Part shown: piece after piece, positions 27,643-49,913 of the stretch
Layout of the letters: each line of letters opens with the position of its first letter
How positions within the stretch are numbered: the first letter of the stretch is position 1
DNA from: Escherichia coli
Lineage (GTDB): Bacteria; Pseudomonadota; Gammaproteobacteria; Enterobacterales; Enterobacteriaceae
DNA length: 64,000 nucleotides
Assembly (NCBI RefSeq): GCF_022846255.1
Contig: NZ_AP025682.1
Strand: one strand, 5' to 3'
The notes under the pieces: model-generated
Seen by the model: the letters and a program-made list of their open reading frames with translations, nothing else
Told to the model about the DNA's origin: nothing
Databases searched by the model: none
Program-made: the position numbers and the translations under genes

Positions 27643-28014
27643 CCATCAGAACCGCTGGACTATCCCTCGGAAACGTTAGCTGAGATCCGCCATACCGGCG
27701 CACGAGCCGGGCTGGCATTTAATCCGGCGACCCCAATCGACGCCTGGCAATATCTAGCGTCTGAGCTGGACGGCGTGATGGTGATGACCTGTGAGCCCGA
27801 TGGGCACGGACAGCGGTTTATTCCCTCTATGTGCGAGAAAATCCAAAAAGTACGCACGGCTTTTCCTCAGACCGAGTGCTGGGCCGACGGTGGAATTACG
27901 CTGGCGGCAGCACAGCAACTGGCTGCAGCCGGGGGGCAGCATATGGTGATTGGGCGCGTCTTGTTCTTTTCATCTGACTATCGCGCGACCTTAGCTCAAT
28001 TCGCCACCCTGTAA
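27643..28014 (+). pseudogene. ribulose-phosphate 3-epimerase-like (sgcE-type) 3' fragment
   Basis: In-frame translation ...AGLAFNPATP...PDGHGQRFIPSMCEKIQKVR...ADGGITLAAAQQLAAAGG... matches the C-terminal ~120 aa of Rpe-family proteins; N-terminal two-thirds absent. Confidence 0.7.
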
Positions 28015-28030
28015 GAGGAGATTGTTTCTG

Positions 28031-28813
28031 ATGAGCCAACAGAGACCTGACCGTATCAAACAGATGCTGCACTACCTGTGGCAACATCGTCACCTCTCCA
28101 CACAGCAGGCCATGGAGCTTTTTGGCTATGCGGAGGCGACTGTCCGTCGTGATTTTCAGTATATTGCCAACCAGTACCCAGGAATGATCCGCGGTCACGG
28201 TTGTCTCGACTTCGACGACAGTACTGACGACAAAGAGTACGTTTTCGATGTGAAACGTACATTGCAATCTGTGGCGAAGAGAGAAATAGCCGCCCTTGCC
28301 CGAACGATGATCAAAGATGGCGACTGCTTTTTTCTCGACTCCGGCTCAACCTGCCTCGAACTGGCGAAATGCCTGGCCGATGCACGGGTGAAGGTCTCCT
28401 GCAACGACATTAAAATCGCCAATGAGCTGGGCTGTTTTCCCCATGTGGAAAGCTATATTATCGGTGGACTGATTCGCCCGGGTTATTTTTCGGTAGGAGA
28501 GAGTCTGGCGCTGGAGATGATCAATGCCTTTTCCGTAGAACGTGCGTTTATCTCCTGCGATGCGCTGTCGCTGGAGACGGGGATCACCAATGCCACCATG
28601 TTTGAGGTCCGGGTGAAAACACGGATTATTCAACGCTCGCGTGAAGTTATTCTCATGGCCGAACACTCAAAATTTGATGCCGTTGAGCCGCATGCTGTAG
28701 CAACACTCTCATGTATTAAAACGATCATTAGTGACAGCGGGTTACCTGAGACTATTGCACAGCGTTATCAGCGAGCCGGATGTCAGTTGTTTTTACCTCA
28801 TTCAATAAAGTGA
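28031..28813 (+). CDS. sgcR: DeoR-family transcriptional regulator SgcR-like
   Basis: ORF with SD AAGAGGAG 10 nt upstream of ATG 28031; DeoR-type HTH and sugar-phosphate-binding C-terminal domain; resembles K-12 SgcR as recalled. Confidence 0.8.
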   Translation: MSQQRPDRIKQMLHYLWQHRHLSTQQAMELFGYAEATVRRDFQYIANQYPGMIRGHGCLDFDDSTDDKEYVFDVKRTLQSVAKREIAALARTMIKDGDCFFLDSGSTCLELAKCLADARVKVSCNDIKIANELGCFPHVESYIIGGLIRPGYFSVGESLALEMINAFSVERAFISCDALSLETGITNATMFEVRVKTRIIQRSREVILMAEHSKFDAVEPHAVATLSCIKTIISDSGLPETIAQRYQRAGCQLFLPHSIK

Positions 28814-29115
28814 TAGGTAAGTTCGTTCGAGAGGGATTTCAAGCAAAAACAATCAATGGCACCCAATAGAAAATATTGGCGATGCGCTCGAACGAATAAA
28901 GAAGCCCTATGCGCAATCCACACGCTACGATGTTGCAACAACACTCCATCTACTTTTTATTCTCATTCACTAAATGTGGCTGTTCTGGATTCATTATTCA
29001 AAGTGTGTACAAGATCACATTTAATCACTTCATTACGGTTCAGCATGCTGAACAAAGCATATTTTCCACTATGTAATGCCGATACCATTTATTCCATGAG
29101 CAAGGAGGAGCCATT

Positions 29116-29904
29116 ATGGTTCGCAAAGGGTGTAATTCATTAGTCCGTGCTGAAAAAATATTAACCCACATTGCATGGGTTGGTATGGCAAGTTATATGG
29201 AGTTATTAAATAAATTTCAGTACCCAAAAAGCAGCCTGCTTAATTTATTGAATGTAATGGTGGAGTGTGGTTTCTTAATTAAAAACAAAAACGGCTACTA
29301 TTCACTGGGAATAAAAAACTACGAATTGGGTTGTCAGGCGTTACACCGCCAAAATATATTTGAGGTGACTAAGCGGCCAATGCAGGAGTTGTCGCTGAAA
29401 AGTGGACTGGTTTGTCATCTTGGGGCGATGGAGAGCATTTCGGCTATTTATCTCGACAAGATCGAAAGTCCGGACTCTGTACCGACGAGCAAAAGCTGGA
29501 TTGGCAAAAAACTTGAGTTGCATATTACCGCGTTGGGTAAGGCATTATTAGCCTGGAAGACACGAGAAGAATTAGATTATTTTTTAGAAGCACTCACGTT
29601 AACTCCGCATACGCGCAATACATTTACCGATAAAAAATCATTTCTGGAAGAATTACAAAAAACACGCCTTCGGGGATGGGCCATAGACAACGAAGAATCA
29701 ACCTATGGTGCGGTATGTTTAAGTATGCCGGTATTCAATATGTATAACAGAGTTAACTATGCAATCTCACTTTCTGGCGATCCGGTAATTTATTCAGGAA
29801 ATAAGATAGACAGCTATCTGGAGTTGCTCCGGAAATGCACAGGGCAAATATCATATGGGCTGGGATACAGAAACGAAAATGAGCATTTACGAAAAGGAAA
29901 CTGA
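29116..29904 (+). CDS. yjhI: IclR-family regulator (YjhI-like)
   Basis: 262-aa ORF; paralogous to the IclR at 11946-12707; stop overlaps SD of the next gene. Confidence 0.8.
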
Positions 29905-29908
29905 GGTA

Positions 29909-30814
29909 ATGAAAAAATTCAGCGGCATTATTCCACCGGTATCCAGCACGTTTCATCGTGACGGAACCCTTGATAAAAAGGCAATGCGCGAAGTTGCCGA
30001 CTTCCTGATTAATAAAGGGGTTGACGGGCTGTTTTATCTGGGTACCGGTGGTGAATTTAGCCAAATGAATACAGCCCAGCGCATGGCGCTCGCCGAAGAA
30101 GCTGTAACCATTGTCGACGGGCGAGTGCCGGTATTGATTGGCATCGGTTCCCCTTCCACTGACGAAGCGGTCAAACTGGCGCAGCATGCGCAAGCCTGCG
30201 GCGCTGATGGTATCGTCGCCATCAACCCCTACTACTGGAAAGTCGCCCCACGAAATCTTGACGACTATTACCAGCAGATCGCCCGTAGTGTCACCCTACC
30301 GGTGATCCTGTACAACTTTCCGGATCTGACGGGTCAGGACTTAACCCCGGAAATCGTGACGCGTCTGGCTCTGCAAAACGAGAATATCGTTGGCATCAAA
30401 GACACCATCGACAGCGTTGGTCACTTGCGTACGATGATCAACACAGTTAAGTCAGTACGCCCGTCGTTTTCGGTATTCTGCGGTTACGATGATCATTTGC
30501 TGAATACGATGCTGCTGGGCGGCGACGGTGCGATAACCGCCAGCGCTAATTTTGCTCCGGAACTCTCCGTCGGCATCTACCGCGCCTGGCGTGAAGGCGA
30601 TCTGGCGACTGCCGCGACGCTGAATAAAAAACTACTACAACTGCCCGCTATTTACGCCCTCGAAACACCGTTTGTCTCACTGATCAAATACAGCATGCAG
30701 TGTGTCGGGCTGCCTGTAGAGACATATTGCTTACCACCGATTCTTGAAGTTTCAGAAGAAGCCAAAGAAAAAGTCCGCGCACTGCTGTCCGCGCAAGGTA
30801 TTTTATCGGACTGA
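29909..30814 (+). CDS. yjhH: DapA-family 2-keto-3-deoxy-pentonate (xylonate-pathway) aldolase YjhH-like
   Basis: Start ATG 29909 (MKKFSGIIPPV...) with SD GAGG; GTGGEFSQ, NFPDLTGQD, GIKDT motifs. Confidence 0.85.
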   Translation: MKKFSGIIPPVSSTFHRDGTLDKKAMREVADFLINKGVDGLFYLGTGGEFSQMNTAQRMALAEEAVTIVDGRVPVLIGIGSPSTDEAVKLAQHAQACGADGIVAINPYYWKVAPRNLDDYYQQIARSVTLPVILYNFPDLTGQDLTPEIVTRLALQNENIVGIKDTIDSVGHLRTMINTVKSVRPSFSVFCGYDDHLLNTMLLGGDGAITASANFAPELSVGIYRAWREGDLATAATLNKKLLQLPAIYALETPFVSLIKYSMQCVGLPVETYCLPPILEVSEEAKEKVRALLSAQGILSD

Positions 30815-30824
30815 GGAGAGGATC

Positions 30825-32792
30825 ATGTCTGTTCGCCATATTTTTGCTGACGAAAGTCGCGATATCTACACCGTCAGAACCCACGCAGATGGCCCTGACG
30901 GAGAACTGCCTCTGACGGCGGAAATGCTCATCAACCGCCCGAGTGGGGATCTGTTCGGGATGACCATGAATGCCGGAATGGGCTGGTCTCCGGACGAGCT
31001 GGATCGGGACTGTATTCTACTGCTCAGCACACTGGGAGGGGTACGCGGGGCAGACGGTAAGCCCATCGCGCTGGCGTTGCATCAGGGCCACTACGAGCTG
31101 GATATCCAGATGAAAGCGGCTGCGGAGGTAATCAAAGCGAACCGTGTCCTGCCCTATGCCGTCTATGTTTCCGATCCGTGCGACGGACGAACTCAGGGTA
31201 CGACGGGTATGTTTGACTCGCTACCGTACCGTAATGACGCCGCCATGGTGATGCGTCGTCTTATCCGCTCTCTGCCCGATGCAAAAGCCGTCATAGGCGT
31301 GGCGAGCTGCGACAAGGGACTTCCGGCCACCATGATGGCGCTTGCCGCGCAGCATAACAAAGCGACGGTGCTGGTGCCCGGTGGCGCGACTCTACCCGCA
31401 GGGGATGGGGAAGATAACGGCAAGGTGCAGACCATCGGTGCCCGCTTCGCCAATGGCGAGTTATCACTACATGATGCCCGCCGTGCGGGTTGTAAAGCCT
31501 GTGCCTCCTCCGGCGGCGGCTGCCAATTTCTGGGCACCGCCGGGACATCACAGGTAGTAGCTGAAGGATTAGGACTGGCTATCCCGCACTCAGCACTGGC
31601 CCCATCCGGCGAACCGGTGTGGCAGGAGATAGCCAGAGCCTCCGCGAAGGCGGCGTTGAACTTATGTAAACAAGGCATCACCACCCGGGAAATACTTACC
31701 GATAAAGCGATTGAGAATGCGATGACGGTCCATGCGGCGTTCGGTGGTTCAACAAATCTGTTGCTGCATATTCCGGCGATTGCCCATCAGGCCGGCTGCC
31801 ATATTCCAACCGTTGACGACTGGATCCGCATCAACAAGCGGGTGCCCCGACTGGTAAGCGTACTCCCCAATGGTCCGGTTTATCACCCGACAGTGAATGC
31901 CTTCATGGCGGGAGGTGTGCCGGAGGTGATGCTGCATCTTCGTAGTCTGGGATTGCTGCATGAAGACGTGATGACGGTCACCGGCAGCACGCTGAAAGAA
32001 AACCTGGACTGGTGGGAGCATTCCGAACGGCGTCAGCGGTTCAAACAGCTTCTGCGCGAACAGGAGCAGATCGATGCCGACGAGGTGATCATGTCGCCAC
32101 AGCGGGCACGGGAGCGCGGCCTGACCTCAACGATCACTTTCCCGGTGGGCAATATTGCCCCGGAAGGGTCGGTTATCAAATCCACCGCCATCGATCCCTC
32201 GGTGATTGATGATCGGGGCATCTATTACCATAAAGGCGTGGCGAAGGTTTATCTGTCCGAGAAAAGCGCGATTTACGATATCAAGCACGAGAAGATTAAA
32301 GCGGGCGATATTCTGGTCATCATCGGCGTTGGCCCTTCCGGCACCGGGATGGAGGAAACCTACCAGGTCACCAGCGCCCTGAAACATCTGTCCTATGGCA
32401 AGCATGTTTCACTGATCACCGATGCGCGTTTCTCGGGTGTTTCCACGGGAGCCTGTATCGGCCACACAGGGCCAGAAGCACTGGCCGGAGGGCCAATCGG
32501 TAAATTACGCACCGGAGATATTATTGAAATTAAAATTGATTGTCGCGAGCTTCAGGGCGAAGTCAATTTCCTCGGAACCCGTAACGATGAAACATTACCC
32601 TCACGGGAGGAGGCCACCGCAATATTAAACGCCCGACCCAGTCATCAGGATTTACTTCCTGATCCTGAACTGCCAGATGATACCCGACTCTGGGCGATGC
32701 TCCAGGCGGTAAGCGGCGGGACATGGACGGGTTGTATTTATGATGTAAATAAAATCCGCACGGCCTTGCGCGATTATATGAATAAAAACTGA
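30825..32792 (+). CDS. yjhG: IlvD/EDD-family dehydratase (D-xylonate dehydratase YjhG-like)
   Basis: Start ATG 30825 (MSVRHIFADE...) with SD GAGGAGAG; ~655 aa; IlvD/EDD signature with Cys-rich cluster (CDGRTQG, SCDKGLPA). Confidence 0.85.
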   Translation: MSVRHIFADESRDIYTVRTHADGPDGELPLTAEMLINRPSGDLFGMTMNAGMGWSPDELDRDCILLLSTLGGVRGADGKPIALALHQGHYELDIQMKAAAEVIKANRVLPYAVYVSDPCDGRTQGTTGMFDSLPYRNDAAMVMRRLIRSLPDAKAVIGVASCDKGLPATMMALAAQHNKATVLVPGGATLPAGDGEDNGKVQTIGARFANGELSLHDARRAGCKACASSGGGCQFLGTAGTSQVVAEGLGLAIPHSALAPSGEPVWQEIARASAKAALNLCKQGITTREILTDKAIENAMTVHAAFGGSTNLLLHIPAIAHQAGCHIPTVDDWIRINKRVPRLVSVLPNGPVYHPTVNAFMAGGVPEVMLHLRSLGLLHEDVMTVTGSTLKENLDWWEHSERRQRFKQLLREQEQIDADEVIMSPQRARERGLTSTITFPVGNIAPEGSVIKSTAIDPSVIDDRGIYYHKGVAKVYLSEKSAIYDIKHEKIKAGDILVIIGVGPSGTGMEETYQVTSALKHLSYGKHVSLITDARFSGVSTGACIGHTGPEALAGGPIGKLRTGDIIEIKIDCRELQGEVNFLGTRNDETLPSREEATAILNARPSHQDLLPDPELPDDTRLWAMLQAVSGGTWTGCIYDVNKIRTALRDYMNKN

Positions 32793-32898
32793 AAGCAAAA
32801 ATAAAAATATCCAGACGCCTGAATTATCCGGTTACGCATTATTCATCCTGTGCGCAGCCGGATAATGACGGCTCGTTACCCTATAATGAGAGGACGTT

Positions 32899-34248
32899 AT
32901 GCCACTAATTATCGTTGTGGCAGGGATTGCTTTACTCCTGCTTTTAACCATAAAAATTAAGCTTAATACGTTTGTTTCGTTAATTATTGTCTCGATTGCT
33001 GTCGCCATCGCCAGTGGTATGGATTTGAGTAAAGTCGTCACCTCAGTCGAATCCGGACTTGGCGGTACGCTGGGCCATATTGGTTTGATATTTGGCTTCG
33101 GTGTTATGCTCGGTCGCTTGCTGGCCGATGCGGGGGGGGCGCAGCGAATAGCGCTGACCATGCTGAATTATTTCGGGAAAAATAAACTTGACTGGGCAGT
33201 GGTCTGTTCGGCGTTTATTGTCGGTATCGCACTTTTTTTCGAAGTCGGTTTAATTCTTCTGGTACCTATTTTATTCGCTATTGCCCGTGAAGCAAAAATA
33301 TCACCGATGTTTATGTGTGTGCCGATGCTTTCCGGTTTGCTGGTCGCACACGGTTTTTTGCCGCCGCACCCCGGCCCGACAGTAATCGCCAGAGAATATG
33401 GTGCTGATGTAGGATTGGTACTGATATACGGTATCATTGTCGGCATTCCAACCTTTATTCTTTGCGGCCCGGTATTGAATAAATTCTGCCAGCGCATTAT
33501 TCCGGAAGCCTTTAAAAAAGAGGGGAATATAGCCTCTCTCGGCGCGACCCGCCGGTTCAGCGAAAGCGAAATGCCTGGCTTTGGGATCAGTTTTCTCACG
33601 GCAATGCTGCCGGTGATCCTGATGGCGGTTGTCACCATCATCCAGATGACTCATGCCAAAAGTGCCGCGGATTCAGGCTTATTCTACAACGTGCTACTGT
33701 TCTTAGGTAATTCGACGATCGCCATGCTGATTTCACTGCTGTTCGCGATCTATACCATGGGCCTGGGGCGCGGGAAAACAATCCCTGACCTGATGGATTC
33801 TTGCGGAAAAGCTATCGCGGGTATTGCCGGTCTGCTGCTGATTATCGGTGGTGGTGGTGCATTCAAGCAAGTTCTCATCGACTCTGGCGTTGGTCAGTAT
33901 ATTTCCACCCTGGTTTCGGGTATGGATATTAACCCGATCCTGATGGCCTGGGGCGTGGCCGCATTCCTGCGTATTTGTCTGGGTTCAGCCACCGTCGCGG
34001 CGATCTCTACCGCCGGTCTGGTCATCCCATTGTTGGCAGTACATCCCAATACCAACCTGGCCTTGATTACGCTGGCTACCGGTGCCGGATCCTGTATTTG
34101 TTCTCACGTTAACGATGCCAGTTTCTGGATGATTAAAGACTTTTTTGGCCTGACCACCAAAGAAACGCTGTTATCCTGGACGCTGATGTCCACACTCTTA
34201 TCCATCAGTGGGCTGATTTTTATTCTGCTCACCAGCTTAGTTTTATAA
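32899..34248 (+). CDS. yjhF: GntP-family permease (YjhF-like)
   Basis: 449-aa polytopic ORF; SD GAGAGGA; GntP motifs ([20 protein letters not shown]). Confidence 0.85.
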
Positions 34249-34397
34249 TCGGGTTCTTGCCAGTGAGCCAACCTGTTGTTCACTGTCCCCCATAATTTAG
34301 TGAGTGACGGCAACCGTCTGCACGGTGACGAATCGCTGGCGATCAAAAAGGGGCGATATTGAACCGTCGATTATGCTTGTTGAGTGTACTCTCAGTA

Positions 34398-34436
34398 ATA
34401 CTGTAAAGCCGGAGCATGTCTCCGGCTTTACAGTAT
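34398..34436. repeat. perfect 16-17-bp inverted repeat TACTGTAAAGCCGGAG-CATGT-CTCCGGCTTTACAGTA
   Basis: Seen directly; no U-tract on either strand, so not a canonical terminator; lies between yjhF and the SorC regulator gene. Confidence 0.9.
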
Positions 34437-34594
34437 GGGGGAACAGCGGGCGATCGCTCAAATGGTATGCTGGTTTATTTCATGTAAAAGAATAAAATAT
34501 CTGTATAAAATCATGCCACTGGCAATCTGCATCAACTCTCCGGGTAAACAGGGTTAAGATGAGCATTTCCCCGGTTTAATACAGGTATACAAAA

Positions 34595-35581
34595 GTGGAT
34601 AGAGATCAAACAAACAGCAGCCTGTTCAATGATGATCCCGTGCTTCATGCAACATGGCTGTACTATCAGGAAGGCAAAAGCCAGACTGAAGTTGCAGCTA
34701 TCATGGGGGTGTCCCGCGTCACGGTTGTCAAATACCTGCAAACAGCCCGGGAAAATGGACTGGTTCATATCAACCTGGATGTGAATGTCTTTGGCTCTAT
34801 CGACGCTGCTTTGCAAATTCGCGATAAATTCAATCTCCTGAGAGTGATCATCGTGCCGGATGGCGAACATGCCGGAAAACGTGATGATACAAAGCTGATG
34901 CGGACTCGCCTTTCACGTGCCGGTGGCATGTATCTGAATCAGGTGATTGAGAATGGTGATGTGCTGGGGGTTGCCTGGGGAAGAACAATCCATCAGATGA
35001 GCAAAACCATGACGCCGAAGTCATGTAAAAATGTCACCGTTATACAGATGCTCGGTTCCATGCCATCTCAGCCAGACCTGACGATCATTGAATCCTCATC
35101 GCAAATCGCCTACAAGCTTTCAGGCCGTGTCGCTTCGCTGCACGTGCCCGCCGTGGTATCAAGCGCCAGACTGGCCATGGAGTTACAGGCAGAGCCTATT
35201 ATTCGATCGAATTTTGACGTTCTGACTCGCTGTACGAAAGCCTTTTTTGTCGTGGGTAACACGCTTGATGAAAATCCCCTGATTCGGGTGGGCGTGCTGA
35301 ATAAGAAGGAAATGCAGACGTATCGAGATTTAGGCGCAGTAGGTGTCATTTGTGGCCGCTTCTATGACAAGGAAGGGATGCCCGTCGTGGCTGATGTTGA
35401 CCAGCGTATTCTGGGAATCAGTCTGGCTCAGTTAAGGCAGATTGAACGGAAGATCTTTCTTGCTGGTGGCGAAAGAGGCTATGACGCAACGTTGGGTGCC
35501 CTGCTGGGAGGATATGTCACTGACCTGATTGTTGATGAAGGAACGGCAGAGTTTTTGCTGGCGTGTGAATTACCACACTAA
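34595..35581 (+). CDS. SorC/DeoR-family sugar-binding transcriptional regulator
   Basis: 328-aa ORF (GTG start per track); N-terminal HTH (LYYQEGKSQTEVAAIMGVSRVTVVKYL) plus sugar-phosphate-binding domain; convergent with the mtnK operon. Confidence 0.7.
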   Translation: MDRDQTNSSLFNDDPVLHATWLYYQEGKSQTEVAAIMGVSRVTVVKYLQTARENGLVHINLDVNVFGSIDAALQIRDKFNLLRVIIVPDGEHAGKRDDTKLMRTRLSRAGGMYLNQVIENGDVLGVAWGRTIHQMSKTMTPKSCKNVTVIQMLGSMPSQPDLTIIESSSQIAYKLSGRVASLHVPAVVSSARLAMELQAEPIIRSNFDVLTRCTKAFFVVGNTLDENPLIRVGVLNKKEMQTYRDLGAVGVICGRFYDKEGMPVVADVDQRILGISLAQLRQIERKIFLAGGERGYDATLGALLGGYVTDLIVDEGTAEFLLACELPH

Positions 35582-35593
35582 AAGAATGAACTA

Positions 35594-35625
35594 CTGCCCC
35601 ATGTGGATATGGGGCAGGATTTTAT
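35594..35625. terminator. bidirectional rho-independent terminator
   Basis: Stem CTGCCCCAT / ATGGGGCAG with 6-nt loop, followed by GATTTTATT; sits between convergent genes. Confidence 0.6.
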
Positions 35626-36626
35626 TGATTAGCGGCGATAATAAGAACAATACCCACAATGTATGAAATAAACATAGTCAGCAGCAGTTTATTGGTTCCG
35701 GCTGGCGCACTGGCAAATTCTCTCCAGATGAAGACTCCCCAGATCACGGCAATCATTGTGGCACCCTGTCCCAGACCGTAGGAAATGGCATAACCCGCCT
35801 GACCAGACGCAATCAAACTGAATGCCAGACCGACACACCAAATCATACCGCCCAGCCAGCCGCAAACATGATCCCGTAAACTCCCGGAAAAATACATTTT
35901 CCTGTTGACAGGTTCTCCTGAAATAGGCTTTTTCATGACCAGCGTGTTAAGGACAAAGTTCGACAAAAACAGCCCCACGGCAAACAGAACAAGTGCTGAG
36001 TACGGCGTCATCAGACCGCTGGCAGGCTGGCTGAAATTGTCAGACATGGAGTCCGCCAGGAAGCGGAAAAACCATCCCATGATGATACCCGCAAGAATGG
36101 CAGTGATGAGGCCTTTGTTACGGCGAGATTTATCCGCCTCCTGCGTGACACGGCCATAGGCTATCGCGGTAAAAATAATGGCGATCACAACGCAGGCGAC
36201 ACCGAGGAACAGAATGAGCGGATCGCCCTGCGGATTGCCGATATAGGTGGTGATCACACCCAGAGCCAGTGCCAGCCCCACCCCCACAGGAAAAGCTACC
36301 GCCATACCGGCAAGATTAATAGAAGCCACCAGAAGAATATTGGAAATATTGAAGATAATCCCTGCCAGTATTGCCGACATCAGACTACTGTTGCTCGCCT
36401 GCTGAATATCAGGTATAAAGCTGCGACCGGCTTCGCCCATAGAACCCAGAGTGAAGGCAAATAACAAAGAACACAGCAATAATCCAATTGAATAATCCCA
36501 ATAGAATAGAGGGAACTCCCATTTTTTATTACTGACAAGTTTAGTTGTATTCGCCCATGAACCCCAGCAAATCATAGTAATAAAACACATTATTATGGCG
36601 ACAGCATACGATTCCACGATAAACAT
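35622..36626 (-). CDS. sugar transporter (DMT/GRP-type, RhaT-like fold)
   Basis: 334-aa polytopic ORF; SD AAGGAG; last gene of the minus-strand mtnK operon. Confidence 0.55.
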   Translation of the reverse strand: MFIVESYAVAIIMCFITMICWGSWANTTKLVSNKKWEFPLFYWDYSIGLLLCSLLFAFTLGSMGEAGRSFIPDIQQASNSSLMSAILAGIIFNISNILLVASINLAGMAVAFPVGVGLALALGVITTYIGNPQGDPLILFLGVACVVIAIIFTAIAYGRVTQEADKSRRNKGLITAILAGIIMGWFFRFLADSMSDNFSQPASGLMTPYSALVLFAVGLFLSNFVLNTLVMKKPISGEPVNRKMYFSGSLRDHVCGWLGGMIWCVGLAFSLIASGQAGYAISYGLGQGATMIAVIWGVFIWREFASAPAGTNKLLLTMFISYIVGIVLIIAANQ

Positions 36627-36729
36627 AAATAACTCCTTGTGGTAGTTATAATCAATCGTTGTGGACAGAGGGCATAACAGCCATTCCTCGAATGGCTGTT
36701 ATATGTTATTAATTAAAATAAAGCTGTAA

Positions 36730-37371
36730 TTACGCTTTCAAACCATACGTTTTGAATTTTTCAAGAACGATGGTCATTTCGGCTTCAGACAGAACGGGAA
36801 CATCGTGATGTAATCCGCCACATTTGATGTATAAATCAGCCAGCGTCTCAGTTTCACCCGCCAGCCACAACGTCTTTTCCAGCGTGACGTCCATGGCCAG
36901 CATACCGTGGTGCTGCATCAGCAAGGACTTACTTTCTCTGATTCCTTGAGATACACTGTCGGCCAGTTCAGGGCTGCCAAAGGTATAATAGGGAATACAG
37001 GGAATATGATCCGTCCCCGATACCGCCACCATATAATGAATAGCCGGAATTGAATGATTATGTATTGCCACCGCCGTGGAATTCACCGCATGCGTATGTA
37101 TGACAGCATTCAATTCTGGTCTGGCTTTATAACACGCCAGATGAAATAGCCATTCACTTGATGGTATTTTACCCGCTTCAGGTATTCCCTTATCGTCTAC
37201 AAAGACAATCATGTCCGGCGTCATCTTTGAATAAGCGATCCCACTCGGTGTAATCAACATGCCACCGGTATATCTGGCACTCACATTACCTGATGTTCCT
37301 TGATTCAGACCTGACGCATTCATTTCCCGACAAATGGAAATGATATTTTCTGCTAACTTAATCCTTTCCAT
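36730..37371 (-). CDS. class II aldolase/adducin-family protein (MtnB-like; DHAP-shunt aldolase candidate)
   Basis: 213-aa ORF; SD AAGGAG; class II aldolase metal-binding His pattern (HTHAVNSTAVAIHNH...). Confidence 0.8.
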   Translation of the reverse strand: MERIKLAENIISICREMNASGLNQGTSGNVSARYTGGMLITPSGIAYSKMTPDMIVFVDDKGIPEAGKIPSSEWLFHLACYKARPELNAVIHTHAVNSTAVAIHNHSIPAIHYMVAVSGTDHIPCIPYYTFGSPELADSVSQGIRESKSLLMQHHGMLAMDVTLEKTLWLAGETETLADLYIKCGGLHHDVPVLSEAEMTIVLEKFKTYGLKA

Positions 37372-37401
37372 TACTGCTCCTTAACAGAAGTGATCGTCGT
37401 T

Positions 37402-38517
37402 TTAATGCAGCTCGTCCTGGAGTGCTTTACTCTTCAGGTCAGCAAACATATCCGCCAGAGCTGACTTACTGGCAGCACAGACTCCCCGTTCAGTAATGAG
37501 GCCGGTAATGTATCGGGCAGGCGTGACGTCGAAAGCGTAGTTCTCACAACGGGTTCCTTCAGGGGCGGTATTGACCCAGCTCAATTCTCCCTGAGTATTT
37601 ATCCCATAGACATGGGACTGCTCTTTTCCGTCACGTTGCTCAATCGGAATGGTTTTTCCGTCCTCGATAGTCCAGTCAATAGTGGGAGAAGGTAGCGCGA
37701 CGTAGAAGGGAACATGGTTATCATGGGCCGCCAGCGCCTTAAGATAGGTACCAATTTTATTACAGACATCCCCTCTGGCCGTGGTTCGATCGGTCCCCAC
37801 TATACAGAGATCAACGTCACCGTGTTGCATCAGGTGGCCACCCGCATTGTCGGCAATCAGGGTGTGAGGAATACCGTGTGAACCCAGTTCAAATGCCGTG
37901 AGTCCACCCTGATTACGTGGCCGCGTTTCATCCACCCAGACGTGAACAGGGATTCCGTTTTCATGCGCTTTATAGATGGGAGAAAGCGCGGTTCCCCAGT
38001 CTACGGTCGCCAGCCAGCCTGCGTTACAATGTGTCAGGATATTGACCACACTCCCGGCCGATTTTTTCTGGGCTATTTCGCGGATGACTTCTGCACCATG
38101 TAATCCAATTTGTTCGCACAACGCGACATCTTCCTCGGCAATTTCTGCCGCCAGCGCCCAGGCCACATCCTTGCGCTCTGATACACAGAGATCCTTCAGT
38201 GTGGCTATCATCCTGTCGAGAGCCCATTTGAGGTTAATTGCAGTTGGTCGGGTTTTGATAAGAAGGTCATAGTAACGCTGCAGACCTACGTCACTGGCAT
38301 TGTGGTTCATTCCCAGTGCGATACCATATGCCGCAACGACACCAATAAGCGGGGCGCCACGAACCCACATCTCCTGAATAGCCGCAGCGGCCATTTCCGC
38401 AGAGGTAAGCGCCACCACTTCAAACTTAAAAGGCAGCTTAGTCTGATCGATGATCTCTACCGCTTTTCCATCCCCGGAAACCCAGACCGTTCGGTAGTGT
38501 TTACCTTTAATATTCAT
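37402..38517 (-). CDS. mtnA: 5-methylthioribose-1-phosphate isomerase family (MtnA-like)
   Basis: 371-aa ORF; SD AAGAGG; eIF-2B alpha/beta/delta-type isomerase pattern. Confidence 0.85.
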
Positions 38518-38526
38518 AATGACCTC

Positions 38527-39786
38527 TTACTTAACCTTCGCAGACTGGATGACGGAGTCCATATTTTTAAACTGGCGGGCATTGACAATAAGATCGCGCG
38601 CCATGGTCAATGCACGTCGTTCACATTCTGCGCGAAGCTCTGTATTTTCAATCTGTTTCAGCTCGGCAACGCCAGCAAAACCAATGATCCGGCGATTCAT
38701 TTCCATGCCGGCATTCACCAGGGAATCTTCAAGCAGCGTGGCAAAAAACTGATCCTGTGCGTCCTCAAGAGCGGCCCTGTTCTGTTGATACATTTCTGTC
38801 GGCCACGCGTCACCCTGTGTTTTGTTGTCCCAGAGCTGGCGGAACTCCCGGGTGAAAACTGACCAGGTGTGGACAATCTGCTGAAGTAGCCATTCCTGAT
38901 AGTCAGCGCGACGTTGCTCATTTGCATCCCACCCAGGGCGTGAGAAGAACGCCAGCAGGAGGTTGCCAATATAGTTGCCGATATCAAACGCCATTGGTCC
39001 CATGAAACCGAACTCCGGATCAATCACTTTGGTATCCGTGTCGGTCACCATGATTGAGCCTGAATGAAGGTCACCATGTAACAATGCCTGCGCTTCTGTC
39101 ATAAATTTGTACTTATAACGCATGGCAACCTGGAGCATCTCTACATCAGCCCAGGCCTTATGGACGGCATCGTCCAGCTCAGGAGAAGTCCAGTTATTCC
39201 GTTCCGCGTTGTAATAGGGCTCTGTGAAGATCAGATCTTCCGTAATTTTGCACAGCTCATGATTCAACGCGAACTCAGCAGTAAGCGCTTTTTTCTGTTC
39301 TGCTGACATGCCAATGTCAGACGTATTAAAGAGAGTCTGTGCTAAAAATCTGCCGATATCTTCAGCTAGCTTAGGGAATTTTTTACCGTTAATCAGTCCC
39401 TTACGCAGAATTACGTGAGGCGTCAAATACTCCATGGCAAACAGTGCCATTTCCGGGTCATAAAAATAGACCTGGGGAATCAGTGTGTGACCCGCGTACT
39501 TGGCTTCCTGACATAAGACGTTGTACTCAAAGCCCGCACGGCTCAGAGATAAAGGCCATCCTTCGCCCCCTGCACGAAGCCAGGGCAGAGCTTGTTTTAC
39601 AATGATGGTTTTATGTGTCCCCTTAACGATAAACACCATGTTCAGGTTTCCGTCCCCCACTTCTGAAACTTTCCACTCTTCTGGTAACCCTCCCGGTTCG
39701 CATGAAGGGGTCAGTCTGGACGAGAGATAACCAGGCAGCGTGTCACATGTCAGCGGCTTGTAACCTGATGGAATTGAATCCGTCAT
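38527..39786 (-). CDS. mtnK: 5-methylthioribose kinase family (MtnK-like)
   Basis: 419-aa ORF; SD AAGGAG; aminoglycoside-phosphotransferase-like kinase with MtnK pattern (EVGDGNLNMVF...IVKQALPW...HGDLHSGSIMV...KVIDPEFGFMGP). Confidence 0.85.
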   Translation of the reverse strand: MTDSIPSGYKPLTCDTLPGYLSSRLTPSCEPGGLPEEWKVSEVGDGNLNMVFIVKGTHKTIIVKQALPWLRAGGEGWPLSLSRAGFEYNVLCQEAKYAGHTLIPQVYFYDPEMALFAMEYLTPHVILRKGLINGKKFPKLAEDIGRFLAQTLFNTSDIGMSAEQKKALTAEFALNHELCKITEDLIFTEPYYNAERNNWTSPELDDAVHKAWADVEMLQVAMRYKYKFMTEAQALLHGDLHSGSIMVTDTDTKVIDPEFGFMGPMAFDIGNYIGNLLLAFFSRPGWDANEQRRADYQEWLLQQIVHTWSVFTREFRQLWDNKTQGDAWPTEMYQQNRAALEDAQDQFFATLLEDSLVNAGMEMNRRIIGFAGVAELKQIENTELRAECERRALTMARDLIVNARQFKNMDSVIQSAKVK

Positions 39787-40300
39787 AACAGTTCTCCTTA
39801 TCTACACAGAATGATAACTGACTTATCATATGGCAACTATACTTTATCATGTGTAAAGTAATTTGTGATGCATGTAGATTTTTTGAACTGGAGAAAATTA
39901 AAAATAATGTTGTATGGAGTCATGATCTTTACAGGAATTAGTAGGGTGCATTCCTGTTATTTATATAAAATTCATTGTATTACATAAAAATGACGGTGCT
40001 GCGCGGGGAATTGTCTCGGGCAATCTTAGACGAAAGGAAGTATTGAAGTGACAGAATAATCTACATTTTTTATACATGTGTATTTTTCTGTTGTCTTTTG
40101 TTTTTAGCGTATGGTGTTTTTATGCCGATGTCTAATAGACAGATAGATTCGAGGGCCAACAGCCCCATTATCATGATGGAGCAACAGAGGTGAGTCTAAC
40201 GTTTCCGTACTTCTTATCGATCGGCACTAACAATCCTTTGTGATAACGGTATTCCCACACAGAGAAACCCACGTACCTGAATAAAAAAAAGATTACTGGT

Positions 40301-40700
40301 GTGGAAATGGGATTAACAGATTATGCCATCAAATCGGATGGTAATGAGGTCAATAATCCTCGTCATCTCATTAACGTCAACTGTAATCTGCGACGCAAAT
40401 TAGCCAGCATGATGAATAATAAACACAATCTGGCAAGAGCGTTAGGTGATGCTGATTGGCACGGCTTTATCAACAAACTGGAGTACAAGGCAGCCGAAAA
40501 AGGCGTTCATCTGGTAAAAATCGACCAGTAGTTTGTCTGTTCGAAAAGCTGCTATTGTTGTGGTTACAAAATGTTGCTTCAAAAACGGATCTGGCGATGC
40601 CCTGAATGCGGTGTTGAACATGACCGGGATATAAATGCGGCAATCAACATAAAACTTAAAGACATACAGGAATTAAAGGCGGCGGGCCCCGTCGTCTCTG
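40301..40700 (+). pseudogene. IS200/IS605-family TnpB (OrfB) remnant with internal deletion and frameshift
   Basis: Two frames encode TnpB-like pieces (...WHGFINKLEYKAAEKGVHLVKIDQ and ...RIWRCPECGVEHDRDINAAINIKLK...); no intact ORF; subterminal hairpins follow. Confidence 0.55.
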
Positions 40701-40984
40701 TCTATGGAGGAGCTGCGTAAACCCGTCGTACAGACGGTTGCAGCCTGAAAAGTGGGAAGGCCTTGCCCGATTGGGCGGGGAGTAGTCACCCTTGGAGTCA
40801 TTTTTATCCGGTGTATTAATATGCTCCTAATAGTTAATCTGGTTATAATATTTTTTTTTTGATTATGATCACGAAAATATCTCGGTTTTTATTTGCAAAA
40901 CTTGAAACGTGAATCCAAAAAAGATAAATATTTGTCCGCAGTGACTTCTTTTCTGTTGAAAAGTTCAATCTAAAGGGCAAAAAA

Positions 40985-42097
40985 ATGAAAAAAATTACAG
41001 TGGCACTTTCTGTGGTTGCGGCATCTGTTCTGATGGCAATGTCTGCACAAGCGGCAGAAATCTATAACAAAGACGGTAACAAACTGGATCTGTACGGCAA
41101 AGTTAATGCAGAGCATTACTTCTCTTCTTCAGCTAGTGATGACGGGGATAAAACTTATGCTCGTATGGGTTTCAAAGGTGAAACTCAGATTAATGACCAG
41201 TTAACCGGTTTTGGTCAGTGGGAGTACGAATTTAAAGGTAACCGTACTGAAACTGAAGGTTCTGATAAAGATAAAACTCGTCTTGCGTTTGCAGGGCTTC
41301 GCTTTGGCGATTATGGTTCGCTCGACTATGGTCGCAACTACGGTGTAGCTTATGATGTTGGCGCTTGGACTGACGTGCTGCCGGAGTTTGGTGGAGATAC
41401 CTGGACTCAGACTGATGTATTTATGACCCAGCGTGCTACTGGCGTAGCGACCTATCGTAACAATGATTTCTTCGGCTTGGTTGATGGTCTGAACTTTGCT
41501 TTGCAGTATCAAGGTAAAAATGATAGTGCTGCAAAAGTGAATAACTGGAAAGGCCGTGACGAAGTTGAATCTAATGGTGATGGCTTTGGTCTGTCAGCTA
41601 CTTACGATTATGAGGGATTTGGCGTTGCTGCAACCTATGCAAAATCTGACCGTACTGATGGGCAGGTATCCTATGCTAAAGACAGCCCTCTGAATGCCTC
41701 TGGTAAAACTGCTGAAGTATGGGCTACGGGCCTGAAATATGATGCAAACAACATTTACCTGGCTGCAACTTATTCTGAAACTCAGAATATGACAGTCTTC
41801 GGTGATGACCATATCGCAAACAAAGCGAAAAACTTTGAAGCTGTTGCTCAATACCAGTTTGATTTCGGCTTGCGTCCGTCCATCGCTTACCTACACTCTC
41901 GCGGTGAAAATATTGGTGCGTTCGGTAACCAGGATCTAGTTGAATACATCGACGTAGGTGCGACTTATTACTTCAACAAAAATATGTCCGCTTTCGTTGA
42001 CTACAAGATCAACCTGATTGATGAAAGTGAATTTACCAAAGCATCTGAGGTTGCAACCGACAACATCGTTGCTGTTGGTATGACCTACCAATTCTAA
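40985..42097 (+). CDS. nmpC: general porin, OmpC/OmpF family (NmpC/Lc-like)
   Basis: 370-aa ORF; signal peptide [23 protein letters not shown]; mature N-terminus [17 protein letters not shown] and C-terminal ...YQF typical of enterobacterial 16-strand porins; closest recalled match NmpC/Lc. Confidence 0.85.
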
Positions 42098-42350: not shown

Positions 42351-43205
42351 CTAAGCGAGATTATGGTTTTCAAATTGTTCCGGGCTGAGACCGCCACAGG
42401 CACTGTGACGACGCCAGCGATTGTAATCACACTCGATATAATTAAACACCGTTGCCCGCATTATTTCCCGGCTGCTAAAGCGTTCCCCGTGGATACATTC
42501 CACCTTCAGCGAATGAAAGAAGCTTTCCACACAGGCATTGTCATAACAGTAGCCTTTCGCACTCATACTGCCACGCAGGTTGTGTCGCTTCAGCAGCGCC
42601 TGATAATCCCCTGAACAGTATTGACCACCACGGTCCGTATGAACAATGACGCTTTCCGGGCGTCTTCTCCGCCACAACGCCATTTGCAGTGCATCACAGG
42701 CCAGTTGTGCTGTCATTCGCGGTGACATCGACCAGCCAATGACGGCGCGTGACCACAGGTCGATGACTACTGCGAGATACAACCAGCCCTCATCGGTACG
42801 CAAGTACGTGATGTCACCCGCCCACTTCTGGTTCGGGCCACTGGCGCTGAAGTCCTGCTCCAGCAGATTCTCCAATACGGGCAGACCATGTGCACGGTAG
42901 CTGACCGGGCTGAACTTCCGGCTGGCTTTCGCCCGCAGCCCCTGACGACGCAGGCTGGCGGCAATGGTTTTAATATTGAACTCCGGCAGTTCGTCAGCAA
43001 GGCGGGGATCACCGTATCGCTGCTTTGCCTCAAAGAATGCCTTATGGACAGCGGCATCGCAGGTGAGCCGAAACTGTTGGCGCAGGCTCATCTGGTGACG
43101 ACGCCTGAGCCAGACATACCAGCCGCTGCGGGCAACCCGAAGTACACGACACATCGCTTTGATGCTGAACTCTGCCCGATGATTTTCGATGAAGACATAC
43201 TTCAT
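42351..43205 (-). CDS. IS3 transposase OrfB
   Basis: 284-aa DDE ORF ([26 protein letters not shown]...). Confidence 0.9.
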
Positions 43206-43501
43206 TTCAGGCGCTTCGCGAAGTATGTCGCGGCCTTTTGGAGGATGGCCAGTTCCTCAGCCTGCTCCGCCAGTTGTCGTTTAAGGCGGACATTTTCAGC
43301 GGCCAGTTCGCTTTCGCGCTCTGACGAACTCATTTGTTGCTGCTGTTTACTGCGCCAGGCATAAAGCTGAGATTCATACAGGCTGAGTTCACGGGCTGCG
43401 GCGGCCACACCGATGCGTTCAGCGAGTTTCAGGGCTTCGTTACGAAATTCAGGCGTATGTTGTTTACGGGGTTTCTTGCTGATTGATACTGGTTTTGTCA
43501 T
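43202..43501 (-). CDS. IS3 transposase OrfA
   Basis: 99-aa HTH OrfA; overlaps orfB (ATGA) for -1 frameshifting. Confidence 0.9.
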
Positions 43502-43833: not shown

Positions 43834-45024
43834 TTAACGTTTCCGTCCTGGAAATACAAATAGTGCAATAACGGGAGATATTACCATCAGAACAAAAACA
43901 TAGGTAAATCCAAGTGTAAATCCGCCTGTTAGATCGACCGACCAGCCAATTAACTGACTGTTTATCGTTGCCAAAATAAATGTACAAACCCAGAAGGTGG
44001 ACATTGAATAAGTAACAGTTTGAGTATTCGCATTTTTTTGTTCTTCTTTTGGAATGGAGAAGATGAATGCAAACCAGGTGGCAAAAATAGAACCCGTCAA
44101 AAACGAACAAACCAATATAACGATATCATTAGTGGCAAATAACATTGCAAAGGTTGTAATAGCCATAAAGATACTGGAAATAAATAGCCATGATTTATAA
44201 TTATACCCACGGTTTTTAAAGTACGGCCCCATCAATGCACCAAGTAAAATCCCCACCTGATTGACTGTGCCACTCAAGTGAGCACAGGAGTCAGGGGGAA
44301 GATTAGCATATTTTGCATAGTACAGAGGCAGAAATGTGAACATAAAAATCATCATGATCATTGCCCCAGCATACTGAATAATCATTCCCCAGACAATACG
44401 ATTAAACAATACATCCTTTAATACAGATATTCGCTGTTCATAACTTATAGATATATGGCTATTCTGTTGTTGCTCTTCATCCGTGAAACATATTATCCAG
44501 ACAACCCCCAATATTAACGTAATTATTCCATAGATAGCTAACAGATTACGCCACCCGTTGAACAGCAGTGATAAATAACCTGCCAATGTCAATGCAATAA
44601 TTGTACCGATAATATTTGAAGTGCAATTTATACTATTTAATGTTGACGCCATTTTGTTATCGAAAAAGCGAGCAACCGTGGGCACCAGTGATACAAGGCA
44701 AATAGCCCCCCCCAGCCCACCAAGAAAACGAATAATCAATAACAAAGTAAAGTTATTAATAAATGGAATGAGCAAGGAGCTCCCAATCATTATACATCCA
44801 AGAAAATAGGATTTTCGGGTGCCGAGCCGGGAAACAAAGACTGCAGTACAAACAGCTCCCACAATTTTAGCCCATAAAATTACATTTGACATCAATGCAG
44901 CATGTGATACATCAACATTAAAATCACTCATAATTTGTGGCATTACGGCCCCTGTCGTAGCCCAGGCGGCACCAAATACCATATAAACGGTGTAAAGAAT
45001 GAATTCAATGACCCATTTTTTCAT
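43834..45024 (-). CDS. MFS transporter
   Basis: 396-aa 12-TM ORF; SD GAGG; 4-nt overlap with upstream peptidase gene. Confidence 0.8.
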   Translation of the reverse strand: MKKWVIEFILYTVYMVFGAAWATTGAVMPQIMSDFNVDVSHAALMSNVILWAKIVGAVCTAVFVSRLGTRKSYFLGCIMIGSSLLIPFINNFTLLLIIRFLGGLGGAICLVSLVPTVARFFDNKMASTLNSINCTSNIIGTIIALTLAGYLSLLFNGWRNLLAIYGIITLILGVVWIICFTDEEQQQNSHISISYEQRISVLKDVLFNRIVWGMIIQYAGAMIMMIFMFTFLPLYYAKYANLPPDSCAHLSGTVNQVGILLGALMGPYFKNRGYNYKSWLFISSIFMAITTFAMLFATNDIVILVCSFLTGSIFATWFAFIFSIPKEEQKNANTQTVTYSMSTFWVCTFILATINSQLIGWSVDLTGGFTLGFTYVFVLMVISPVIALFVFPGRKR

Positions 45025-46274
45025 TTTTGTACCTCAGGGACACTTAGCTCAACCATTTCCAGCAGCATTTCACTGGCAAGACGCAGGGATTCCACAGGCA
45101 AAAACTCTCTGGTTGAGTGAAAATTGTGCGCCCCTGTAAATATATTAATAGTAGGCAGCCCTTTTGGGGTGATGACGCTACCATCATAACCACCGCGCAT
45201 AATCAGTGGTTTTGGTGTAATGCCAAGGTTACGCATTGCCTGTCTAACGTTATCTAAGATTGCAGGTGTTTTATCAAGCGCTGGTTTGACATTTTCATAT
45301 ATATCGGTTAACACTAATGTTATTCTTTCACTCTTCCAGCGCTGATTAATACTCTTAACAATGTTCTCGAGTACGGCTTTACGTTGTTTATATCCTGTTA
45401 ACTCAAAGTCCCGAATAGCAATATCAAGCGTGGCGCTGGCTGTATCACCATGGAGATTATGGACCCAATAATATCCTTCCCGTTTTTCAGTATGCTCAGG
45501 CCTTTCTTTTTCAGGTAATGCGGCGATAATTTCCGTTGCTATACACAACGCATTAACAAGCTTACCTTTAGCACTCATTGGATGTGCTGTAACACCACGA
45601 ACTGTAATTCGTGCACTACCTGCATACCAGTTTTCAACAACATATTCTCCAATCTCACAACAGTCGAGACAGATACCAAAATCAGAATTCAGTTCACCAA
45701 CATCAAGCGCTTTTGCCCCTCTGATACCGGTCTCCTCATCAGGCAAAAGAACAAGACGAATATCACCATGAGAAAAGGAGGGTGTATTAATCATATATTT
45801 GAGAGCTTCAACACCTGCTGCAATGGCAGCTTTGTCGTCAGCCCCCAGCAAGCTGGTGCCATCAGTTACAATAATATCCTGACCGATATAGTTGAGTAGT
45901 TCTGGATTATCCTGTGGGGATAGTTTTTCCACACTCCCTGCAAACGGTATAGCACCTCCGTTATACTTTTTCACTCGGAAAGCATGTGTATCTGTACTGT
46001 GGTCCGGAGCTGTATCAAGGTGTGCAAAGAATACGATAGAAGGTGCATCAGGAATATTAGCGGGTAAATGAATTGTGGCAATAGCATTTTCTTTTATGCT
46101 TGTTTGTACCTCTGGAACATCAGAAAATTGACTTACAACATATTCTGCCAGTTTATATTGATTTTTACAGCTTGGAAGCTCCTTGCTACCATCAACCGAT
46201 GTCGTATTTATTTTTGTGTAATATAAAAAAGTCTCAATTATTTTCTCTAAGTCAATGCGTTTTTTCATGATCAT
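45021..46274 (-). CDS. peptidase T-like M20-family metallopeptidase (tripeptidase-like)
   Basis: 417-aa ORF; M20 metal-ligand motifs (HLDTAP; GADDKAAIAAGVEAL; HGDIRLVLLPDEETGIRGA). Confidence 0.8.
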   Translation of the reverse strand: MIMKKRIDLEKIIETFLYYTKINTTSVDGSKELPSCKNQYKLAEYVVSQFSDVPEVQTSIKENAIATIHLPANIPDAPSIVFFAHLDTAPDHSTDTHAFRVKKYNGGAIPFAGSVEKLSPQDNPELLNYIGQDIIVTDGTSLLGADDKAAIAAGVEALKYMINTPSFSHGDIRLVLLPDEETGIRGAKALDVGELNSDFGICLDCCEIGEYVVENWYAGSARITVRGVTAHPMSAKGKLVNALCIATEIIAALPEKERPEHTEKREGYYWVHNLHGDTASATLDIAIRDFELTGYKQRKAVLENIVKSINQRWKSERITLVLTDIYENVKPALDKTPAILDNVRQAMRNLGITPKPLIMRGGYDGSVITPKGLPTINIFTGAHNFHSTREFLPVESLRLASEMLLEMVELSVPEVQK

Positions 46275-46294
46275 ATACCTAATTGTTTACTATC

Positions 46295-46329
46295 AATATC
46301 CTGACTATCTATATTTAGATAATATCCTG
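46295..46329. promoter_or_regulatory. two direct repeats AATATCCTG spaced 26 bp, just upstream of the peptidase start
   Basis: Seen directly at 46295-46303 and 46321-46329; a GTCAGTTCCTGAC palindrome lies ~60 bp further upstream. Confidence 0.3.
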
Positions 46330-46479
46330 CAAAAATTAGTGAGTATAGAAAAGGTCGTCAGTTCCTGACTGGTAAATGTCCCTTCGAGATTTATTAGAGT
46401 CATAATTTGCCTCATCCCAATACAAAAAACAATACGAAAGTATGAAAAAGTGTAGTGATCAACAAAATATTGCCACGTT

Positions 46480-46556
46480 TGTTTCGGTGTTATTGGAGAG
46501 GTTTTTGGTGTTTTGTCCTTACGAGCATCACGCAGTTGTTTGCCCCATCTTGTCAT
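46480..46556 (-). pseudogene. IS911-like OrfA fragment
   Basis: Encodes [26 protein letters not shown], matching an internal segment of IS911-type OrfA. Confidence 0.4.
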
Positions 46557-46719
46557 CGTGGAAAGACGACATCAATAGCTTGGTGTAACTCTGGTCAACA
46601 ACCAGTTGCACGGAGTTGCATATGAATTCAGGAGCTTTTCACTGGTGCACCTATATTGGCATATCTGAACCGCCCCGGAAATCCTGGAGACTAAACTCTC
46701 TGAGAAAGAGGCAAACAGG

Positions 46720-46785
46720 ATGACTAAAAAAACACGTTTTTCCCCCGAAGTCCGTCAACGGGCAGTTCAATGCTTTGTCGAATAA
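46720..46785 (+). pseudogene. IS3-family OrfA 5' fragment
   Basis: Encodes MTKKTRFSPEVRQRAVQ, the N-terminus of IS3-family OrfA proteins; stops after 21 codons. Confidence 0.4.
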
Positions 46786-46899
46786 ACATTTACCTGAACG
46801 ATTAACTGCAACGGCTATCCTTACCGACAATCAACGTCAATAAAAATCTGTACTGACTCGTCAGCACTGGGTTCGATCAGTAGGAACATGAATTCAAAG

Positions 46900-46990
46900 G
46901 CCACCTTGCTGAATCTCAAGACTCCTCCGATTCCAAAGATAAACCCCGTCTTAAGTTCGCTGGCCTGAAATTCGGTGACTATTGTCTATA
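46900..46990 (+). pseudogene. porin gene fragment
   Basis: Encodes EFKG...DKPRLKFAGLKFGDY, matching the conserved beta-strand 2-3 region of the intact porin (EYEFKG...[17 protein letters not shown]). Confidence 0.4.
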
Positions 46991-47191
46991 TCGGGATCAC
47001 CACGGTTGTGTGATTAATCATCGTCGATCATAAAGCGTCTATGGATGTACTGCGGCGTTCCTGCTACTGGTGATCACCCTGTGGTTGTGCAATTCCAAAC
47101 GGCTGAAGCGAGAGTAACAGACATCACGCCGCAATCGGGGGCGGCGTGTAGACGTGGTTAATTACTATCAAATATATTAATCAGGCCGATT

Positions 47192-49814: not shown

Positions 49815-49913
49815 ATTTGTTACTCGCCCGGTTTTATCGTTAGGGTAATGTAATATTTCGAGGGAGGAAGTGTTATTCTGTATTTTGTTTTCGTTATTAT
49901 GAAAATTTGCATA

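Follow-up and report, generated by a model that had tools for sequence, protein, structure and literature searches.

An apparently intact copy of the Escherichia coli dihydroxyacetone phosphate shunt operon in a genomic island at the pheV tRNA gene

What does a sugar kinase gene followed by genes for an isomerase, a class II aldolase and a transporter do for Escherichia coli, and is such a cluster new to the species? The question is raised by positions 34595–39786 of a 64,000-nucleotide stretch of E. coli DNA (contig NZ_AP025682.1, assembly GCF_022846255.1), which as a whole is referred to here as the window. Judging by its near-identity to an operon that has been studied experimentally, we read the locus, with a probability of about 0.93, as the already characterised dihydroxyacetone phosphate (DHAP) shunt operon of E. 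coli, here in an intact copy. An initial annotation of the window had claimed that a shunt of this kind occurs in some extraintestinal E. coli, and it is indeed published: the mtnK-mtnA-ald2-permease operon of ATCC 25922, a strain of extraintestinal pathogenic E. coli (ExPEC), has been described as the “DHAP shunt” (Huening 2024, PMC10986504; Huening 2025, PMC12632272). It is a known system whose characterisation was done in E. coli itself, and the window holds no new one. An earlier study of the DHAP shunt, by North et al. in 2020 (Mol Microbiol 113:923), reportedly underlies both Huening papers.

The locus consists of the following features:

38527–39786, minus strand: mtnK, first gene of the operon (419 amino acids), with the Shine-Dalgarno sequence AAGGAG at 39793–39798
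37402–38517, minus strand: mtnA, gene for an isomerase of 5-methylthioribose-1-phosphate/5-deoxyribose-1-phosphate (371 amino acids), Shine-Dalgarno sequence AAGAGG
36730–37371, minus strand: ald2, gene for a FucA-like class II (Zn) aldolase (213 amino acids), Shine-Dalgarno sequence AAGGAG
36674–36702, minus strand: hairpin with a perfect stem of 13–14 bp in the 103-bp spacer between ald2 and the transporter gene
35622–36626, minus strand: gene for a DMT/GRP-type transporter, fourth in the operon (334 amino acids), Shine-Dalgarno sequence AAGGAG
35594–35617, both strands: candidate bidirectional intrinsic terminator between the transporter gene and yjhU, a hairpin with T-runs on either strand
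34595–35581, plus strand: yjhU (= mtnR), gene for a SorC-type regulator (328 amino acids), with a GTG start and convergent with the transporter gene
39787–40235, minus strand: 5´ regulatory region (mtnK leader), homologous to nucleotides 348–799 of the 799-bp ATCC 25922 leader

The table of open reading frames of the window gives four co-directional frames on the minus strand in the order kinase, isomerase, aldolase, transporter, exactly as the initial annotation had it, with spacers of 9 bp (mtnK/mtnA), 30 bp (mtnA/ald2) and 103 bp (ald2/transporter). Its description of the Shine-Dalgarno sequences as AAGGAG-class is borne out when these are read from the DNA, three of the four being exact and that of mtnA being AAGAGG, and the convergent SorC regulator that it proposed corresponds to yjhU on the plus strand, whose product carries a PF04198 domain. 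Among curated family models, MtnK matches the equivalog TIGR01767 (S-methyl-5-thioribose kinase) at 521 bits (cut-off 275) and MtnA matches TIGR00512 (S-methyl-5-thioribose-1-phosphate isomerase) at 412 bits (cut-off 279). Relatives among the structures in the PDB are 2PYW and 2OLC for MtnK and 1T9K for MtnA. The transporter is harder to place. Its Pfam matches are weak (PF07168 Ureide_permease, E = 2e-10 and 1e-9; PF06800 Sugar_transport, E = 2e-6), as is its match to the RhaT model (28 bits), and the NCBI Prokaryotic Genome Annotation Pipeline (PGAP) names it “GRP family sugar transporter”. It probably belongs to the DMT superfamily, with an uncertain subfamily assignment.

The evidence that carries our reading is the comparison with ATCC 25922, whose locus was located by the coordinates in the authors’ Dataset S2. 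The two strains share the five genes, their order, strands and intergenic spacings, and the left neighbours yjhF-yjhG-yjhH-yjhI-sgcR. Measured against these characterised DHAP-shunt proteins, a check that the initial annotation had called for, the predicted proteins are 96.8–99.4% identical: 98.6% for MtnK (WP_000132325 in ATCC 25922), 96.8% for MtnA, 98.1% for Ald2, 99.1% for the transporter and 99.4% for YjhU. Gene lengths are identical and there are no disruptions. The codon differences are synonymous in 89 cases and non-synonymous in 27, which, with the reading frames intact, points to purifying selection. Homology extends over positions 27647–40235 of the window, with sgcE at one end and a point about 450 bp upstream of mtnK at the other. 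Identity to ATCC 25922 in this segment is 97–99%, falling to about 85% in two patches, yjhG and the mtnK leader.

Ald2 scores 361 bits with the FucA subfamily model PRK08087 (cut-off 264), stays below the cut-off of the strict FucA equivalog (314.7 bits, cut-off 400.25), and reaches 66 bits with the MtnB dehydratase model TIGR03328, far under its cut-off of 137. Among solved structures, E. coli FucA (1FUA) gives a gap-free alignment at 270 bits and 58% identity, in which the Zn ligands H92, H94 and H155 are kept together with E73 and Y113; the phosphate-site residues G28, N29, G44, S71 and S72 are kept as well, and T43 is replaced by Ser. The Bacillus thuringiensis-type aldolase 6BTD is a far more distant relative, at 118 bits. 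Judged by the subfamily score, the MtnB score far under its cut-off and the conserved FucA residues, Ald2 is an aldolase-type and not an MtnB dehydratase-type protein. The initial annotation had asked for this grouping to be confirmed, and the profile scores settle it on the side of the aldolases. The logic shared with FucA and the 6-deoxyhexose pathways for fucose and rhamnose is the conversion of a deoxy-sugar-1-phosphate to DHAP and an aldehyde. Ald2, a paralogue of FucA, differs from it in that its linked genes encode MtnK and MtnA, not FucI and FucK, and, according to the literature, in acting on 5-deoxy or 5-methylthio pentulose-1-phosphates.

In ATCC 25922, the nucleosidase Pfs and the three enzymes turn 5´-deoxyadenosine and 5-deoxyribose, or 5´-methylthioadenosine (MTA) and 5-methylthioribose, into DHAP and acetaldehyde or 2-methylthioacetaldehyde, respectively, and through the shunt these compounds can be the only source of carbon for growth; neither sulfur salvage nor detoxification is a role of the shunt (PMC10986504). 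The MTA sulfur is not returned to methionine but accumulates as 2-methylthioethanol, and K-12 given mtnK-mtnA-ald2 alone grows on 5-deoxyribose, the permease not being needed for this growth (PMC10986504). This mechanism can be carried over with high confidence to the operon in the window because of its ~97% identity to the operon studied. Pfs, a housekeeping nucleosidase encoded elsewhere, would release 5-deoxyribose or 5-methylthioribose from 5´-deoxyadenosine or 5´-methylthioadenosine. MtnK would then phosphorylate the sugar at C1, MtnA would isomerise the product to the 1-phospho-ribulose, and Ald2 would cleave 5-deoxyribulose-1-phosphate or 5-methylthioribulose-1-phosphate, yielding DHAP for glycolysis along with acetaldehyde or 2-methylthioacetaldehyde. 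The DMT-type permease, dispensable in K-12, is presumed to import 5-deoxypentoses. The predicted role is the use of by-products of S-adenosylmethionine (SAM) as carbon and energy source, not the salvage of methionine or sulfur. It is already published that ExPEC-type E. coli can use the pathway to grow on SAM by-products found in urine. We met no evidence against the enzymatic assignment.

Related systems are found in Rhodospirillum rubrum, Rhodopseudomonas palustris and, as DrdK-DrdI-DrdA, in Bacillus thuringiensis, where the chemistry is again that of a kinase (or phosphorylase), an isomerase and a class II aldolase (PMC10986504). Their role is sulfur salvage or detoxification, and some have MtnP instead of Pfs and MtnK, whereas the E. 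coli version is a carbon-source pathway under the control of CRP. The aldolase of the window is also far nearer to FucA than to the Bacillus type (270 against 118 bits, as above).

While near-identity makes the enzymology secure, the regulation of the window allele can only be inferred, and here the comparison with ATCC 25922 is less straightforward. In that strain the permease gene is co-transcribed with mtnK-mtnA-ald2, and without yjhU the operon is derepressed by about 5 log2-fold; the YjhU protein, now called MtnR, acts as a repressor of the proximal promoter P1 (PMC12632272). CRP is required for growth on 5-deoxyribose and binds a promoter fragment, and the 126 bp proximal to mtnK carry the regulated P1 promoter and the CRP dependence (PMC12632272). 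By analogy, YjhU/MtnR would repress the main promoter of the window operon unless a shunt substrate is present, with a phosphorylated intermediate as the likely effector, and cAMP-CRP would be required for activation, which would place the operon under catabolite repression.

The regulator itself is well conserved, and its family can be stated more closely. YjhU has a PF04198 Sugar-bind domain at residues 64–323 (E = 1e-78) and matches to helix-turn-helix (HTH) domains at residues 21–57 in Pfam. Its best curated models are the Bacillus-type DeoR (209 bits) and LsrR (106 bits), and it remains under the equivalog cut-offs of all named family members. The combination of an HTH with PF04198, and these nearest models, make YjhU/MtnR a SorC-family regulator by domain content. 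E. coli DeoR, GlpR and FucR constitute a family distinct from the SorC type. The published account calls YjhU/MtnR a DeoR-family protein and likens it to these three (PMC12632272). The SorC label of the initial annotation is the more precise one, correcting the family to the SorC type and away from the E. coli DeoR/GlpR type. The same HTH and PF04198 architecture is found in the sugar-phosphate-responsive repressors of the SorC family (B. subtilis DeoR, CggR, LsrR, SorC), and like them MtnR represses an adjacent sugar catabolic operon (PMC12632272).

The promoter is less conserved than the regulator. The leader is 84–85% identical to that of ATCC 25922, compared with 96–99% for the coding genes, and 47 of 255 proximal leader positions differ. 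Three observations weigh against carrying the published regulation over to the window: 19 of the 126 proximal positions (39787–39912) differ from ATCC 25922; the P2 region is gapped relative to that strain; and the proposed MtnR semi-palindrome, CAAAT-AATTTTAC-ATTTG in ATCC 25922, reads CAAAT-TACTTTAC-ACATG in the window (N8 spacer). By our own reading, candidate -10 hexamers are altered too (GATAAT to GATAAA and TACATT to TACACA). These differences give some weight to the possibility, the only alternative of which this can be said, that in this lineage the intact operon has low expression or another mode of regulation through its diverged promoter, be it weaker, constitutive or independent of MtnR. 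The divergence of the leader relative to the genes, the loss of the right arm of the proposed operator and the changed hexamers are the points in its favour. However, all five reading frames are intact and the excess of synonymous differences argues for continued selection; the Shine-Dalgarno sequence, a TCACA half-site, a TCTACA block and a 27-nucleotide block upstream are conserved between the alleles; MtnR is 99.4% identical; and CAAAT-N8-ATTTG as the MtnR site is a by-eye proposal of the authors (PMC12632272). We consider altered expression unlikely, and a functional shunt operon the better reading.

Attempts to define the regulatory sites did not single out an operator. The published P1 transcription start site, which lies upstream of mtnK by 72 bp, as well as the CRP sites at -35.5 and -17.5 (PMC12632272), together with the -10 and -35 elements, could not be matched, from the coordinates in the text alone, to any clear TGTGA/TCACA site or to a canonical -10. 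Searching the window for the pattern CAAAT-N9-ATTTG returned chance-level matches only, none of them in the promoter, and a search for inverted repeats revealed no perfect palindrome common to both alleles in the P1 core. Each allele has a palindrome of its own there, TACATT-N4-AATGTA in ATCC 25922 and TACTTTA-N7-TAAAGTA in the window, which may reflect chance in AT-rich DNA. A consensus promoter scan was not enriched over shuffled sequences (8 found, 11.1 expected), and in the long 5´ region Rfam detected neither a riboswitch nor a leader RNA. As a natural promoter variant, the leader of the window could nevertheless help to locate the MtnR operator and the CRP site. The allele has already been catalogued by the authors, since Dataset S2 lists seven genomes of the window type (84.1% identity over leader nucleotides 348–799, 97.17% over the operon), though those parts of the paper text that were available do not discuss it.

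The end of the leader homology coincides with a change of neighbourhood. Beyond about -450, ATCC 25922 has a fragment of a GT2 gene (WP_000788354), whereas the window has a decayed TnpB (InsQ-type) pseudogene at 40230–40748, which marks the end of the homology, and then an intact extra ompC-like porin gene at 40985–42097 (370 amino acids). An IS3-family element (orfA, orfB) follows at 42351–43501.

Two further explanations would change the role of the enzymes. B. thuringiensis uses this three-enzyme chemistry for disposal (cited in PMC10986504), its type of aldolase (6BTD) is a detectable relative of Ald2 at 118 bits, and the operon could by analogy detoxify inhibitory 5-deoxyribose and 5´-deoxyadenosine instead of supporting growth. 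This is very improbable: the published growth data contradict it, and so does the CRP control, which together with a repressor that responds to substrate is typical of a catabolic operon (PMC12632272). Least credible of all is that the locus is the front end of canonical methionine salvage, with the “aldolase” acting as an MtnB dehydratase that feeds a dehydratase/enolase-phosphatase/dioxygenase route, for, while MtnK and MtnA are the same enzymes as in the universal pathway and MtnB shares the class II aldolase/adducin superfamily with Ald2, to which it gives a weak 66-bit match, this score is far below the cut-off of 137 and the 361 bits of the FucA subfamily, Ald2 has the full aldolase catalytic set at 58% identity to FucA, the window has no gene for MtnB, MtnC, MtnD or MtnW, and the MTA sulfur of ATCC 25922 ends as 2-methylthioethanol rather than methionine (PMC10986504). 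The initial annotation had noted the absence of MtnC, MtnD and MtnW; within the 64-kb window a profile search, and the annotations of near-identical genomes, likewise gave no mtnB-, mtnC-, mtnD- or mtnW-like gene.

If the operon is a single transcription unit, where does it end? No T-tailed terminator was found on the operon strand before the hairpin at 35594–35617. This hairpin lies in the 40-bp spacer between the transporter gene and yjhU and has a 10-bp stem in which 6 pairs are G-C, with T-runs after it on either strand; the spacer has 1 substitution relative to ATCC 25922. Its action as a bidirectional terminator, serving both converging units, is plausible. The other hairpin, at 36674–36702, is a strong one, the RNA fold of the spacer between ald2 and the transporter gene having an energy of -25.1 kcal/mol (z = -4.3), and it is present in ATCC 25922 as well, with 5 substitutions across the spacer. 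Since it lacks a U-tract on the operon strand, we consider it more likely to be an RNA-stability or attenuating element than a terminator.

A megablast search with the four-gene operon, requiring at least 80% coverage, located it in 1078 of 5426 complete E. coli genomes (~20%), and the PGAP annotation has all five genes in over 1000 complete E. coli genomes. The window allele itself (at least 99% identity) is rare, being present in 13 of the 5426 genomes, the other carriers being ~97% identical. The initial annotation had stated that K-12 lacks the operon, and so it does: in MG1655 (4518472–4520324) yjhU directly adjoins IS1F, and in K-12-type genomes the transporter gene is reduced to its last 58 bp (3´ end), abutting IS1F. 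The presence of yjhU and of this stump at the insertion sequence indicates that K-12 lost the operon by an IS1-associated deletion rather than never having acquired it.

The chromosomal address of the locus sets it apart from the published case. The following features lie at the far end of the window:

59562–60824: P4-type integrase gene
61022–61097: tRNA-Phe gene (pheV)
61203–61910: yqgA
from about 62309: speC

The shunt cluster is about 21 kb from the tRNA-Phe gene. With the integrase gene, yqgA and speC flanking it, this tRNA gene identifies the pheV site of K-12, and the window up to about 61 kb is a genomic island inserted at pheV that holds the DHAP-shunt/yjh/sgc module. The literature describes the locus as “invariably” located in the leuX island, and in ATCC 25922 a tRNA-Leu gene with an integrase 54 kb upstream of the locus confirms this placement. 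The copy in the window thus differs from that of ATCC 25922 in lying in the pheV island, and the published leuX placement does not extend to it. The difference is one of location and does not touch the pathway. The arrangement from the leader to the integrase is common to at least 8 complete genomes with the allele (3CM, 4FM, GTEN_97, SM107, FXCREC004, FXCREC035, CDE2901 and O157:H16 Santai), and among the genomes listed the locus, yjhU included, is present as a single copy per record. No complete E. coli genome in the collection is collinear with the whole window, and the island is therefore mosaic.

The window thereby adds pheV as a second place in the chromosome where the module is found. 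Together with the diverged leader, this leads to a tentative suggestion, which we hold to be possible rather than probable: that the module has moved between the leuX and pheV islands, and that the pheV allele could either show the MtnR operator to reside in the blocks conserved between the two alleles, not at CAAAT-N8-ATTTG, or be differently regulated in this lineage. If true, the move of the sgc-yjh-mtn module between islands contradicts the published “invariably” leuX statement.

The second ~85% patch of the segment shared with ATCC 25922 is yjhG (xylonate dehydratase, 30650–32650), which is about 85% identical to both the ATCC 25922 and the K-12 alleles amid neighbours of 98–99%, and has a high local G+C of 0.57–0.59. 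The low identity amid such neighbours and the high G+C suggest a recombined or converted segment; the conversion partner may have been a paralogue such as yagF, which is a guess. On the other side of the shunt, between the IS3 element and a variable segment, the minus strand at 43834–49928 encodes an MFS transporter, peptidase T, an NhaC-type antiporter and a PatB/MalY-type C-S lyase, a cluster for which we found no evident link to the shunt.

The variable segment, 9.2 kb at 50288–59539, is missing from the closest genome (3CM). It encodes a CynX/NimT-type MFS protein, TetR-type and GntR-type regulators, a galactonate-type MFS transporter, an SDR protein (gluconate 5-dehydrogenase-like) and a ManD-like dehydratase of the D-mannonate/galactonate family, and it looks like a sugar-acid catabolic module. 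Within it, at 51355–51477 on the minus strand, is a full-length Rfam match to isrC, an island-encoded Hfq-binding small RNA (135 bits, gathering score 39). A second cluster of the sugar-acid type lies at 11946–20653, with genes for an IclR-type regulator, a DapA/KDG-aldolase-like lyase, a UxaA/galactarate-dehydratase-like protein, a PdxA-family dehydrogenase, GntP and MFS transporters and a lactonase-like amidohydrolase; its best identity in complete E. coli genomes is about 87%.

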